A DNA stretch of 64,000 nt from Camelus dromedarius. Lineage: Eukaryota. Location: positions 36,582,001-36,646,000 of the forward strand of contig NC_087436.1 in NCBI RefSeq assembly GCF_036321535.1, in the 5' to 3' direction. Shown piece after piece: positions 9,968 to 16,500 of the stretch. The notes under the pieces were generated by a model, which did no database searches, was not told the DNA's origin, and saw nothing but the letters and a program-made list of their open reading frames with translations. Position 1 is the stretch's first letter, and the number at the start of each line of letters is the position of its first letter. A program made the translations under genes and the position numbers.

Positions 9968-10440
9968 ATATATTTAAATTTAGAAGAAACTGCCAAAACT
10001 TTCTAGAGTGACTATAACATTTTTTCATTTCCACCAACAATAAATGAGAATTCCTATTGCACTGCATTTTTACCAGCATTTGGTATTTTGTTAGTTTTTT
10101 AACTTTTATTTTAGCCATTATAGTAGATATGAGGTGGTATCTAATTGTAGTTTTAATGGGCATTTCCCTAATGTCTAATGATGTTGAGTATATTTTCATA
10201 TATCTTTGCCATCCATATACTTTCCTTAGTTAAGTATCTGTTCAAGTCTTTTACCCATTTTCTAAATGGAAATTTTCTTTTCTAAGTTTTTATTAAGTTT
10301 GAAGAGTATTTATGGATTCTTTATACAAACCCTTCATTGGATATGTGATTTGCATATATTTTCTCCCAGTCTCTGGCTTGGGTATTCTCTTAATAGTGTC
10401 CTTGTAGATGAGAAGTTTTTAATTTTGATAGTCTGATTTA

Positions 10441-10748
10441 CAGGTATACCTTGGAGATACCGTGAGCTTAGTTCCAGATCACTGAAATAAAGCAAGTATC
10501 ACAATAAAGTGAGTCACACAAATTTTTTGTTTCCCAGTACATGAGAAAGTTGTATTTGCACTATAATGTAGGCTGTTAAGTGTGCAATAGCACTATGCCT
10601 TTAAAAATGTGCATAATACTTTATTGTCAAAAAATTCTAACCATCTCCTGACAGTGCAGGGTTGCCACAAACCTTCAATTTCTTAAAAAAACTAAGTAGG
10701 ATCTATGAAGTACAGTAAAGGAGAGCTGTATAAAATGAGGTATTTCTG
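10441..10748 (-). mobile_element. Tigger1-derived non-autonomous element
   Basis: TA|caggtatacct...aggtatttctg terminal inverted repeats; related copy at 43490-43783. Confidence 0.75.
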
Positions 10749-11183
10749 TGTCAATTTTTTCTTTTATGGTTCATTCTGTTGGTATTGTATGTAAAAACTT
10801 ATCACCAAATCCAAGGTCACACATTTCCCCTATGTTTTCTTCTAGACAATTTTATAATTTTAAGTTTTATATTAGGTTTATATTTTTCGAAGTTGAGTTA
10901 ATTTTTTTTGTATAAGTTGTTAAGCTTATGTCCGGCTTCTTTTTGTGTGTGTGCGCCTATGGACATTTAATTGTTTCAGCACCATTCAAGAAAACTGTTT
11001 TTCCTCTATTGAATTTCTTTTGCACCTTTATCAAAAATGACTTTGACATGTTTACGTGAAGGTTATTTTACCTAAAAACACTGGTTACAACTTCCAGTAT
11101 GATGTTGTAGAGGAGCAGTGAATCAGGACATCCTTGCCTTATTCTGAATTTTAAAGGAAAAAAATTTATTCTTTCATCATTAA

Positions 11184-13537
11184 CACGTTGATCTCCCACT
11201 GTGGATTGAGTGTGTTTCCTGCAGGGCCCAAATTCACACTTCACCACAGTGTGAATATATGTGCTTATACTTAATCTTGTTTATTTTTCCAGTATAATTG
11301 GAATTGTTTAAAAATTTTTTTTCTTATTTTCAATTTTTGACCTCTTCACCATTTTATTTCTTTTTGGAATGTCATTATTCTGCACGGAATAAATTCAGGT
11401 AATAGAATAGTCTGGGATGCTGTGGCATTATTTTGATACTCATTAGCTTGAGAATGATGTGTGATCTGACTAGTAGAACCGGTAGATAAGTGGTTGTTTA
11501 GAATGGTACTCTGTTCGTTGGCCTGCTCTGTTTGACTTGGCTCAGCAGTTTTATTCTGCATCTCAGAGTCTGTGCATCTTTCAGTATCATTCTGTGATTT
11601 TTCTTATCCTTACAGTATCTGTCAGACAATGTGAAAATACAGTTGACAGCAGTCCTAGCAGTGTTGATGAAGTGATCCATGTCAGAAGAAGATACATAAA
11701 TAAAATTTTGTCAAGTTCAATCTCAGAGAATGAGGAGAAAGGTGATGTTGAAGTTGAAAACATTGAGGAGGTTTTAGAACAATTAGTTGTAGAAGAAGAG
11801 GAAGAAATAGATGATGATGTTACTGGACAATACTCAGTGGAAAGAGTTTAGTGGCAGACACAAGTCGTTTATATTTACAGGAAAAAGTGGACTTCTGACA
11901 GAATTACCTTGTGATACCAGCTCAGGTGAAGTTCTTTCACTATCTTTAGATAGTGAAATACTAAACCTTTTGGTAAAGGAGACAAACATATGCAGAACAA
12001 AAATTACTTCAATATCTAAATATGGAATATAGTCAAATTAAGAGGTGGAAACCTACTTCTGAAGAAATTAAAAAATTCCTTGCTCTTCTGATTTGGATGG
12101 GTCTAGTGAGAAACCAATATTTATAACTAAATATTGGTCAAAAAACTCCCTTTACAATTTCGCATTGCCACATACCATGATATCTCGTGATCATTTTGAT
12201 TTATTATCAGATTTGCACTTTGCAAATAATGAAGCTATTGAAAGAAGTGATAGATTTGGAAAAATATCACTGTTGATAATTGATGGATTAATTCTTAGAC
12301 TGAAAATTATCAAAGAACTTTTTCACTGGGCCCAGATGTCATAATTGATGAGATGATGGTTCCTTGCAGGGGAAAGCTTATGTTTAGGTAGTATATACCA
12401 AATAAGACACACAAATATGGAATAAAATTATTTAAGTTATGTTCGACTGAAGGTTATACATGGTCAATAAAAATATATTCTGGACGAGAGAATAGTGGAG
12501 TCAGGCAAATTGGATTAGCTCAAAATGTTTTCAGTGAGCTTGCAGAAAAATTACTGAATGAAGGACATACCTTGTATGTAGATAACTTCTACACCAGGTA
12601 CTAATTGGCCCTGAAATTTTTCGTTTGAAAACTCATGTTGTTGGGACTGTATGGCACAATAAGTTTATTTTGAAAGATGTTATGTCCATCCACTAAAAAG
12701 AGGTGAAATGGTTTTGCAAGAAGATGACAATGGAATTGTCATCCTGAAATGGAAAGATATTCAGGATATAAGAATACTTTCGACAAAACACACAACCATT
12801 ATGGTACTGGTTCAAATTCATCTGCTCGTCGCCGCAATCTTACAAAAATGAAGCCACTAGCCATACTTGATTATAATAAAGGAACGTGTGAAATCAATAG
12901 AAGTGACCAGATGGTTTCATATGCAGTGATGTTATGAAAAAGTATTAAATGGTACCAGAAATTAGCACTACATCTACTTATTGGTATTTCTGTCATAAGT
13001 GCACATACTGTATATCCAGCAAAGGCAAATAAAAAGATTAAAATATCAGATAGGGAACTTTTAGTTAAGGAATGGTTATAGTCTCCAAATATTACATTCA
13101 ATAATATGCAAAGCGACAAAGCAGAAGCAATTCACAAATTCACAAAAATCTGCAAAGCAAAATAAGAAGAATGTGTGTTCTCTGTTATCAGAAAAGCAGG
13201 CAAACTTTGGAATGACAAAAAACTAGAAGAGATGTAAAAAAGACAGGAATATATTGTCCTAGTTGTCCAAAAACACTGCAATTTTGTATAAATTGTTTTA
13301 GTGAATATCGTAAGAAAATAATGTAATGTATAATTTTGTTCAAAAGAAATTTTTTATCTGTATATATATTTTTATGTTGTTACTATTAAATACTTGTATT
13401 ACAAATGAAAACTGTTGCAAATTACTTGTAAAAACCTCCATAATTGTATGAAGGAAAGTGTCACCCATATCTGGGTGATGGGGCCTCTGAGGAAACACAA
13501 CTGTCACCTAGATTTGGGTGACGTGGCAATCAGTGTG
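11184..13537 (+). mobile_element. Full-length decayed piggyBac DNA transposon
   Basis: TTAA at 11180-11183 and 13538-13541; TIRs CACGTTGATCTCCCAC vs revcomp CACACTGATTGCCAC; internal transposase remnant; removing it restores the L1 motif ctttcatcaTTAAgtatgattgttagctatagg. Confidence 0.93.
11616..13326 (+). pseudogene. piggyBac DDD transposase pseudogene (multiple stops and frameshifts)
   Basis: Acidic N-terminus; SEILNLLVKETN; YWS..SRDHF..LHFANN; IIDEMMVPCRGK (D 12347); YIPNKTHKYGIK; LYVDNFYT (D 12581); WKD..LSTKH; KPLAILDYNKG..INRSDQ (third D is N, 12896); KWYQKL; C-terminal CVLC...CPSC...CINCF; stop 13324-13326; start approximate. Confidence 0.92.
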
Positions 13538-16500
13538 TTAAGTATGATTGTTAGCTATAGGTTTTTCAGCTTAGAAAAGTCTTTTCTGTTCCTAATTTGG
13601 TGAAGCTTTAAAAAAAATCATTAATGGATGTTGAATTTTGTTGAATGCTTTTTCTGTATCTATTGAGATCTTCTTTTAAAAGTTAGTTTGTTAACACAGT
13701 GAGTTATATTGATTTTCAAATGCTGAGCCATCCTTGAATTCCTGGGGTGAACTTCATTTTGGTGTTACATATTATGCTTTTTATATATTGCTGGATTCAA
13801 TTAGCTACTATTTTGTTGAGGATTTTTGTGTTCATGAGGAATATTGGGCTATCGTGTTCTTTCCTTGTGATGTCTTTGGTTTCAGTATTCGGATAATTTG
13901 GCCTCATAGAATCAGTTGGGAAGTGTTCAGTATTCTTTTACTTTCTGAAGAAGATTAAGTAGAATTACTATTATTTCTTCCTTGACTGTTTTGTATTTTC
14001 CAGTAAATTTTTTGGACGGTTTTTAACTACAAATTCAATTTCTTTAATCAATATACAACTATTTAGGTTATCTGTTTCTTAGATGAGTTTTGGTATTTTG
14101 CACCTTTTACAAGATTAGTCCACTTCATCTAAGTTTTGTGTAATTGTGTCAAATTTATGGCCAGATAATTTTTAATTATCTTAATATGTGTGGGATAGTG
14201 ATATCCTTTCCTTTATTTCTAATATTAGTAACTTGCATCTACTTTACCTGGGCTAGAGGTTGATCAATTTTATTGATGTTCTCAAAGAAGCAACTTTTGG
14301 TTTTACAGATTTTTTTCCTCTTATTTTCCTGTTTAAATTTTATAGATTTCTGCTCTAATATTTATTATGCCCTTCCTTCTTCTTGCTTTGGATTTGTTAC
14401 TTTCTCTCTAATTTCTTTACTTCCAAGGTTAGTTTACTGATTTCAGATCATCTTTTCTAATATGAATTAATTCTATAAATTTCCCTCTACGCACTGCTTT
14501 ACTTGCATTCCACAAATTTTGATACACTATATTTTCATTTTAATTTAGTTTAAAAAGTTTAAAACTTCCTTTGGGACTTCTTCTTTGCCCCTTGGCTTAC
14601 TTAGAAGTGTGTTGTTTAGTTTCCAAGGATTTTTCAGATATCTAGTTTAATTCTGTTATGGTTTGAGACCTACTGTGTATGATTTCTATTTTAGATTTGT
14701 TAAAGTTTGTCTTACGGCTAAGTATGTCTTACGGCTAAGTGAATGTTCTATTTGAACTTGGAAAGCATCTATATTCTGCTGTTGGTGGTTAGAGTGTTTT
14801 ATAAATACCAACTAGGTCAGGTTGGCTTTTAGTGTCATTCAGGTCATCTGTATTCTTATTCATTTTCTTCCTACTTGTTCTGTTAATTACCCAGAGTGGC
14901 ATGTTGATACCTCCAGCTATGGTTGTGGATATATTTATCTTTTAGTATCTATCAGTTTTTGCCTCATGTATTTTGAAATTCTGTTGTTAGGTGTGTACAC
15001 ATGTAGGATTATTACGTCATCCTGAATTGGCCACTTATGTCACATCCCTCTTTGTCCTGATAATATTCCTTGTTGTGAAGGTTCTTTTGCCTAAAGTTAA
15101 TATATCTACTTCAGTTTTCTTTTGGTTAGTGTTTTCATAATATGTATCCTTTTTTTTTCAATGTCTCTGTGTATGTATAAAGTGAATTTATTATTGTTAG
15201 GATATAATTAGTTCTTGCTTTTTTATTCAATCTAATAATCTTTTGTTTTTTTACTGGTGTATTTAGGCAATTCACATTTAAAATGATTATTAATGTGGTT
15301 GGATTAAAATCTTTCATCTTAAGGTTAGCTGTTTTCTATTCCATTTTTTCCCTGACTTCTCTGGGTTTAATTGTACATTTTTATGATTCCATTTCATCTT
15401 GTCTATTGACTTAATATTTATGTCTTTTAAAAACTTTTTTAGTAGTTGCCCTAGAATTTACAGTAATTTTAAACTAGGTCAACCTTCAGATATTATAACA
15501 TCTAACATGTGAGTATTATCTTATTATAGTCCCAATTCCTCCTTTATATGCCGTAAGCACAATATACTGATAGTTTTTCTGGTTTTTGCTTTACACTGTT
15601 AATTATCTTTTATAGCAATTAAAAACAAGAAAGATATTTTTGTTATCCTCATTTACTCCCCTTTCAACACTCTGCATGTCTTTATATAGATCCAAGTTTC
15701 TGACTGTATTATACTCATTTAGAAGTTCCTGCTCTTTTTCAGATGTAATGTTGGGACTAGTTCTCCTAGTGGTAGAACTTTTTTTTTCTTTTTATTCTCC
15801 TCCAGTTTCAGTGACTTTCCACCAGTGGCCTCAGGCAACAGTTTTGTTGCCTTTCCTCTGCAGATTAAATTTTTATTCCTTAGGAGATATAGAGGACATA
15901 GACCTGGGCTGAGTTTCAGTGGTGGCCGTTCTTCCCAGTCTCTAGCCAGCACCATAGGGGAAGCTTTTTCATGATTCACCTTGATTTACCCTGTGAGCAT
16001 CTTGTGGGATTTGTGGGGAGAAAGCTTGTGGGAAGGCACAAAATCCCCTATGTCTGGCCCCCCAGGGCATCACAGTCTTACTCTTGCCTGTGCTCAGCCT
16101 GTAACAATTAGTTAAAAATTACTGGCTGAATCTTATTAGCTTGTATGGCATTTGTGAGTATGTGGCCCAAGTAAGCAAATGCTCAGGTCCTATTTATCCT
16201 TATGCCTGTCTCTCTTCAGATTTCGTGTTAGTTGTTTACACTGTGACCTCAGTTTTCTGATGGGTTCAAGAAAAATTGTTAATTTACAGTGTGTCTAGCT
16301 TTTTTACTCTAATGATGAGCACAGTGCTTTTTACCAGTTCTCTACCTCTCCAAGCTGAAACTTTTAGTTCTCTGATATTTTTAAATGAATGATTTTGAGC
16401 CTTAAATTCCTAGGATTTTATCTTGGGTACATTTAAAAAGAATGATATAACACACCAACTACCCTGATTCTGGCCCTGCTACAGGCTGGCTTTTACAGTT

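Follow-up and report, generated by a model that had tools for sequence, protein, structure and literature searches.

Horizontal entry of DNA transposons into mammals has been documented mostly in bats and in a few small insect-eating or arboreal lineages. Kenshin, one of the piggyBac elements described from bats, is common to a bee, a strepsipteran and Myotis, and its ends read CACTAGA (extract of PMC4298943); the ends of npiggy1_Mm start with CCCTTTGCAC, that is, with CCC (PMC2997546). PGBD3 and PGBD4 are given as primate-only in an excerpt from PMC5381638. Among insects, the ends of the Trichoplusia ni (T. ni) piggyBac start with CCC and many bee piggyBacs start with CAC (part of PMC10140906), and supplementary Table S1 of the same source assigns to a Bombus pratorum element 13-bp ends starting CACGT, with only these five bases given. 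Here we analyse a stretch of 64,000 nucleotides from Camelus dromedarius (contig NC_087436.1, positions 36,582,001 to 36,646,000; hereafter the window), which carries a full-length but dead piggyBac element of 2354 bp at window positions 11184..13537.

We read this element, with a probability of roughly 0.65, as an autonomous element in decay whose piggyBac family, low in copy number and now extinct, transposed in the camel lineage after horizontal entry from an arthropod-associated source. In the following sections we set out the structure of the element and its family, the relatives of its transposase and the timing of its activity, weighing other explanations where the evidence bears on them.

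The element, its transposase remnant and its copies

All features of the element lie on the plus strand. It is bounded by TTAA target-site duplications at 11180..11183 (left) and 13538..13541 (right), which are read directly from the sequence, and other copies of the family are also flanked by TTAA. Its 13-bp terminal inverted repeats, recognized by comparing the two ends, occupy 11184..11196 and 13525..13537; they read CACGTTGATCTCC on the left and, reverse-complemented, CACACTGATTGCC on the right, and agree at nine of 13 positions. The four mismatching positions of the window copy are CpG-type positions, and CACGTTGATCGCC is present at both ends in other family copies. As judged by eye, five of the seven full-length copies have TTAA on both sides (of the other two, one has TGAA in place of the left TTAA and the other is without its first 12 bp), and a clean right TTAA is seen in about 18 of 24 short copies. 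Near the right end, a repeat scan found two copies of a subterminal palindrome of the type GTCACCCA...TGGGTGAC (13460..13522). An earlier reading of the window, made from its letters alone (the sequence-only reading), had described a TTAA-bounded 2354-bp element with imperfect terminal inverted repeats starting CAC, and on inspection both coordinates and ends agree with that description. As a separate observation, CAG replaces CAC at the start of the left end in the copies L012, L027, L005 and G000 C37:102219119, which may mark a sub-lineage of the family.

The transposase remnant (11624..13326) runs from an acidic N-terminal region to the stop after a Cys-rich tail, and is interrupted by eight frame changes and five in-frame stops. 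Of its nine reading-frame pieces, four match the Pfam profile PF13843 (DDE_Tnp_1_7, 349 positions) and follow one another along it, at 16-56, 60-111, 116-216 and 290-346; two of these pieces exceed the curated cut-off of 22.4 bits, scoring 23.9 and 80 bits, and a Pfam scan of the whole genome also flags the window locus for this family. The remnant aligns with residues 4-564 of a bee transposase, P0009, which together with the colinear PF13843 pieces bears out the earlier claim of a remnant extending from acidic N-terminus to Cys-rich tail. This tail (13165..13323) has the form CxxC ... CxxC ... CxxC with one stop inside, and is 57.6% identical to the C-terminus of P0009 over 59 amino acids (aa); Pfam gave it no significant zinc-ribbon match and only a weak ZZ match.

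The first and second catalytic aspartates (Asp) are kept. They lie at 12347..12349 and 12581..12583 and correspond to D268 and D346 of T. ni piggyBac in an alignment to residues 259-350 of PDB entry 6x67. The third catalytic position (12896..12898), which aligns to the VD of piggyBat (PDB 9c0f), is Asn in the window copy; the triad here is D, D, N, and in copies L002 and L003 it is D, D, D. The comparison among copies indicates that the family possessed a DDD triad of which the window copy has apparently lost the last member.

The insertion site is an old L1. Because the minus strand of the left flank (11068..11181) matches residues 644-681 of human L1 ORF2p (E 3e-8) and that of the right flank (13598..13669) matches residues 597-614, the latter weakly (E 0.03), we take the element to split a single colinear L1 ORF2 remnant, of which these are the downstream and upstream halves respectively. 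One TTAA joins both halves in a single frame, as judged by eye, in agreement with the earlier statement that excision restores a continuous L1. When a 24-residue piece of the right flank was searched against PDB, all five matches were to L1 ORF2p (E 0.03); two other right-flank frames had no match in that search, and Pfam found no reverse-transcriptase family in six read-through frames of the flanks. Further out, the minus strand of window 10777-10950 aligns weakly to a later part of ORF2p (8c8j residues 707-763, E 3.1). The host L1 copy seems, from these alignments, to carry a large internal deletion adjoining the insertion.

We looked for words of window 10400-14300 in sequencing runs, and between 0.87 and 0.92 of them were found in 20 runs from seven studies of one organism. 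As all 20 runs contain these words, the insertion looks fixed in that organism. A single run of a second organism (X24) contained 0.05 of the words, which is no evidence either way.

Searches for further copies were made in the window's own assembly (2.31 Gb in 171 contigs), and yielded 72 matches from 40 scored candidates of 179. Besides the window copy the genome contains six other full-length copies, 79-83% identical to it. Two further copies are long but partial. The many short matches come from copies of ~325 bp that have lost their interior, element positions 1-213 being joined to positions 2253-2354; these portions correspond to 11184..11396 and 13436..13537 of the window. A degenerate left-end 27-mer (at most two mismatches) occurs 142 times in the genome and a right-end 34-mer (at most three mismatches) 179 times, and the reversed control occurs 0 times in each case. 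Thirty left-end loci were fetched, and 24 of them proved to be a still shorter form of ~83 bp that keeps only element positions 1-29 on the left and about the last 58 bp on the right; the remaining six comprise four already-known copies, one longer copy and one 29-bp fragment. The family is made up of an autonomous element and two non-autonomous derivative classes, a few hundred copies in total, and the gene-less derivatives of ~325 bp and ~83 bp now outnumber the full copies.

Some loci met in these searches deserve separate mention. The 29-bp fragment, at about position 1501-1537 of locus L059 (G000 C17:21358316-21361342), is a left end with TTAA on both sides and the rest of the element absent; it could be a deletion product or the remnant of an aberrant event. 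At L020 (G000 C38:15956984-15957517) and L021 (G000 C37:109865051-109865584), a mid-size element and its flanks are identical over 534 bp, and the two contigs, C37 (114 Mb) and C38 (20.6 Mb), also have a second right-end match in common; this suggests either a region common to X and Y, such as a pseudoautosomal one, or a piece of the assembly that is present in duplicate. Weaker, broken matches to PF13843 lie outside the family at G000 C11:10512129-10512731, C1:17982676-17983089, C4:13303473-13303754, C34:4084399-4084608 and C5:10434696-10435049, and are probably the remains of older piggyBac families.

Every one of the seven full-length copies is broken, with three to eight frame changes and five to 11 in-frame stops each, and the genome-wide Pfam scan found no intact open reading frame (ORF) of the family. 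An intact architecture is not borne out by these copies. A recent invasion, or one still in progress, with copies close to intact like those of vesper bats, would fit the full length of the window copy, its TTAA on both sides and the retention of two of its three catalytic Asp. It is nevertheless scarcely credible in view of the frame changes and stops in all full-length copies, the identity of only 79-83% between the window copy and the other six, the outcome of the Pfam scan and the presence of the insertion in all 20 runs.

The same scan found three uninterrupted PF13843 stretches in the genome: L029 (G000 C3:114426173-114427252), L030 (C19:18436827-18437897) and L031 (C8:5958790-5959191). 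Read from the start codon, the ORFs of L029 and L030 encode 596 and 497 aa. All three are presumably domesticated PGBD genes of the host, unrelated to the family. That the window locus is itself a domesticated PGBD-type gene, a retrocopy or an assembly artefact is the least credible of the explanations we considered: nothing beyond a transposase-like reading frame speaks for it, and the inverted ends, the TTAA duplications, the broken reading frame, the many dispersed copies and the presence of the locus in runs from seven studies all speak against it. The same structural features and dispersed copies sustain the earlier view of a real transposition event, distinct from a PGBD gene or a retrocopy.

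Relatives of the transposase and a probable horizontal origin

A query profile made from in-frame pieces of several copies was searched against a collection of 5.8 billion proteins. Among longer proteins there were 290 matches at E 1e-5, and every named protein in the best 120 of these 290 is from an arthropod; the top matches, from an ant, paper wasps and bees (aculeate Hymenoptera), have 57-61% identity to a decayed piece of 137 residues. Among proteins of similar length there were 143 matches at E 1e-10, the named ones almost all from arthropods, with one nematode low down. No mammal appears among the named similar-length matches, and none of the 143 has more than 61% identity. Single copies of the family, read with X at breaks, are 54-61% identical to an Osmia protein. 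Of 558 positions compared with the Osmia protein, 361 have the plurality residue of the copies; for an Anthophora protein the count is 356 of 543 (about 65%).

A maximum-likelihood tree was computed for 90 rows, comprising six mammal rows, 82 matches of 430-720 residues and two host PGBD ORFs as outgroup. The six mammal rows form one clade (support 100), whose sister group consists of 12 hymenopteran rows (support 100), and this pair is nested in further insect, isopod and unnamed sequences. The best reading of this pattern is that the family was acquired by ancient horizontal transfer. The sequence-only reading had offered such an origin as an inference and had pointed to a search for relatives, followed by a tree, as the way to examine it; the nearest proteins are hymenopteran, the family is placed within an arthropod clade, and the phylogeny is at odds with the host tree.

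Alternatively, the element could descend vertically from an ancient vertebrate piggyBac lineage surviving here, its likeness to insect proteins reflecting conservation. Genes derived from piggyBac do have a long history in vertebrates, and intact PGBD ORFs are present in the host (L029 and L030). These ORFs share PF13843 but are only about 25% identical to the bee proteins, compared with about 65% for the family. Given this difference, the nesting of the family within arthropod sequences at support 100, and a single burst of one age, we regard vertical descent as very improbable.

Searches in other collections gave little more: viral contigs scanned with the bee protein P0009 contained no relative, and hence no lead to a viral vector, and the protein Atlas returned only generic PF13843 clusters from arthropods. 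Within the tree, the Osmia (bee) and Athalia (sawfly) proteins (P0009/P0070) are almost the same, their end branches measuring 0.025 and 0.057, and the Dinoponera (ant) protein groups tightly with the Anthophora (bee) protein (P0001/P0004), unlike the insect tree. There are hints here of transfers among Hymenoptera themselves.

Nesting in a SINE, age and lineage

Of the 58 locus records, which represent 54 distinct places, three have the left end of the element immediately behind the TTAA with which the tRNA-like body of a short interspersed element (SINE) ends. ARAGORN calls tRNA-Ala in this body, and the 27-base end of the SINE occurs 17,303 times in the genome (control 0). At L012, the A-rich tail of the SINE and the SINE's own target duplication resume beyond the element, so the SINE predates the element there. 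piggyBac favours TTAA within AT-rich DNA, and repeated insertion at the SINE's TTAA, beside its A-rich tail, fits this preference. We set aside the idea that L012 and L027 are retro-copies of one SINE-plus-element composite, as their Kimura two-parameter (K2P) distance is 0.249 (rank 142 of 153 pairs) and their far flanks differ.

The SINEBase paper, in a sentence of PMC3531059, describes vic-1 as a simple SINE 'in camels' with an independent origin, and we infer that the nested tRNA-Ala SINE is vic-1. Since copies of the element sit in a SINE that was present first, at least some of the activity of the family falls inside the camel lineage. To this extent the lineage claim of the sequence-only reading stands, as regards transposition in this lineage.

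The divergence among copies gives a rough age. The mean pairwise K2P is 0.177 among the seven full copies (0.147 without CpG columns) and 0.196 among 18 mid-size copies, and the median among 21 short rows is 0.166, these rows having been chosen for a well-kept left end and including L035, which is actually a longer copy. Halved, these values come to ~0.07-0.10, which approximates the distance to the active ancestor; all three size classes are similar in age, and there is no older tier. At a general mammalian rate of 2.2e-9, as quoted in part of bioRxiv 10.1101/2022.12.28.522108, activity is placed roughly at 34-45 million years (Myr) ago, or earlier if the lineage evolved more slowly. At the general rate this is younger than the camel-cattle split, dated to 55-60 Myr in an excerpt of PMC3514880. 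Together with the breakage of all full copies, this divergence gives no sign of recent activity.

An older and wider family must be weighed against this timing. The element could have entered an ancestor of Cetartiodactyla or of Laurasiatheria, could already be catalogued in Repbase or Dfam, and could simply have lingered in an active state on the camel branch. The halved K2P of the short forms (0.09-0.10) could mean at least 55 Myr at a slow rate, and a camelid survey lists for each species, by homology to Repbase, four piggyBac miniature inverted-repeat transposable element (MITE) families (PMC8605555, within its table 8); beyond this entry our literature search turned up no account of a piggyBac family in camelids. 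On the other side stand the three copies nested in a SINE reported for camels, the single similar age of the three size classes and the general-rate age after the camel-cattle split. On balance we consider a wider family unlikely, but a serious contender.

Activity within the camel lineage, which we prefer, can be put together as follows. The transposase would have bound the element at its 13-bp CACGTTGATCGCC ends and at the subterminal palindromes, cut it out and integrated it at TTAA with duplication of that motif, as expected from the family to which it belongs, all copies now being dead. After probable entry from an arthropod-associated source related to the present-day piggyBacs of Hymenoptera, the family transposed at a time when the tRNA-Ala SINE had already begun to spread; the window copy landed in the old L1 ORF2, and the same transposase may have mobilized the ~325-bp and ~83-bp gene-less forms in trans. 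The burst was presumably followed by neutral decay that left every full copy broken and none domesticated.

Several points weigh against this reading and call for caution. As to the horizontal origin, the missing mammalian matches are weak evidence, as the protein collections are without unannotated, decayed transposon ORFs of mammals, even the family's own, and many of the close matches are unnamed. The tree comes from a short search with support from the Shimodaira-Hasegawa-like approximate likelihood ratio test (SH-aLRT) only; a bee protein guided the translation of its mammal rows across the breaks, so that a slight pull toward the bee is possible, and an amino-acid identity of about 65% names no donor. 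As to the lineage, the case for restriction to camels consists of the nesting in the SINE and of an approximate clock, with one genome searched; the camelid-only status of the SINE itself comes from one sentence in PMC3531059, and a slower rate pushes the age toward the camel-cattle split.

We propose more tentatively, at somewhat below even odds, that this is an uncatalogued family confined to camelids (Tylopoda), stemming from an Eocene transfer of a hymenopteran-type piggyBac, with two MITE classes and repeated insertions at the TTAA of the SINE. Curation in the Zoonomia project focused on elements with less than 4% divergence, according to part of bioRxiv 10.1101/2022.12.28.522108, and would therefore miss such a family. 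If the proposal is true, it adds an invasion to those documented for DNA transposons in mammals, which concern bats, lemurs, tenrecs and primates. The Zoonomia repeat survey, as excerpted from the same preprint, ties DNA-transposon invasions to diet, and a burst of piggyBac transposition on the stem branch of a plant-eating ungulate family would add an observation that departs from that pattern. The few hundred TTAA insertions would also serve as a dated, lineage-specific marker for camelid phylogeny and synteny. Should the family be common to other artiodactyls or already be present in Dfam, the result is one of routine repeat annotation.

Comparison with described piggyBac systems

The closest relatives are piggyBac-like transposases of Hymenoptera, which carry the NCBI label 'PGBD4-like' and come from Osmia bicornis, Anthophora quadrimaculata, Dinoponera quadriceps, Polistes spp., Habropoda laboriosa and Athalia rosae. 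They have the same order of domains as the mammal family, from acidic N-terminus to Cys-rich tail, and form its sister clade, and the identities reported above (54-61% per copy, about 65% for the plurality) extend over about 550 positions. They differ in having their reading frames open, those of the mammal copies being broken, and in their insect hosts; the comparison is at the protein level only. At the level of the ends, the CACGT start of the Bombus pratorum element is like that of the mammal family, which we treat as a lead only. The sequence-only reading had contrasted CAC with CCC starts; this was right about the CCC of T. ni piggyBac, but the contrast is a loose marker only, since bee piggyBacs often start with CAC (PMC10140906, in part).

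T. ni piggyBac itself (PDB 6x67/6x68) has the TTAA target in common with the family, and the alignment of its DDD core covers residues 259-350 with D268 and D346; it is a distant relative, with E 2.9e-8 over 92 residues and 34-37 bits. piggyBat (PDB 9c0f) is no closer, at 34.5 and 36.1 bits over 67-86 residues of the core pieces of the window copy, whereas the best hymenopteran matches to the profile of that core reach 214-239 bits. These scores speak against a close relationship to piggyBat or piggyBac1_ML. Two further candidates were rejected on their ends: Kenshin, with CACTAGA as against CACGTTGATCGCC in the family, and npiggy1_Mm, with its CCC start.

The piggyBacs of bats and lemurs (piggyBat, piggyBac1/2_ML, piggyBac1/2_Mm and Kenshin) have in common with the camel family a horizontal entry into mammals, probable in its case, and differ from it in being young or active, the camel family being extinct. 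The primate elements MER75 and MER85, with PGBD4 and PGBD3, compared here by description, differ in that no domesticated copy of the camel family was found in the genome-wide Pfam scan; they are likewise extinct, are lineage-restricted, as the camel family would be, and have short gene-less derivatives. Pace and Feschotte are said to have reported, in 2007, an age for MER75/MER85 that is broadly similar to that of the camel family. Taken as a whole, the structure, copies and relatives of the window element indicate an extinct, horizontally acquired mammalian piggyBac family, akin to MER75/MER85 or to the families of bats and lemurs.

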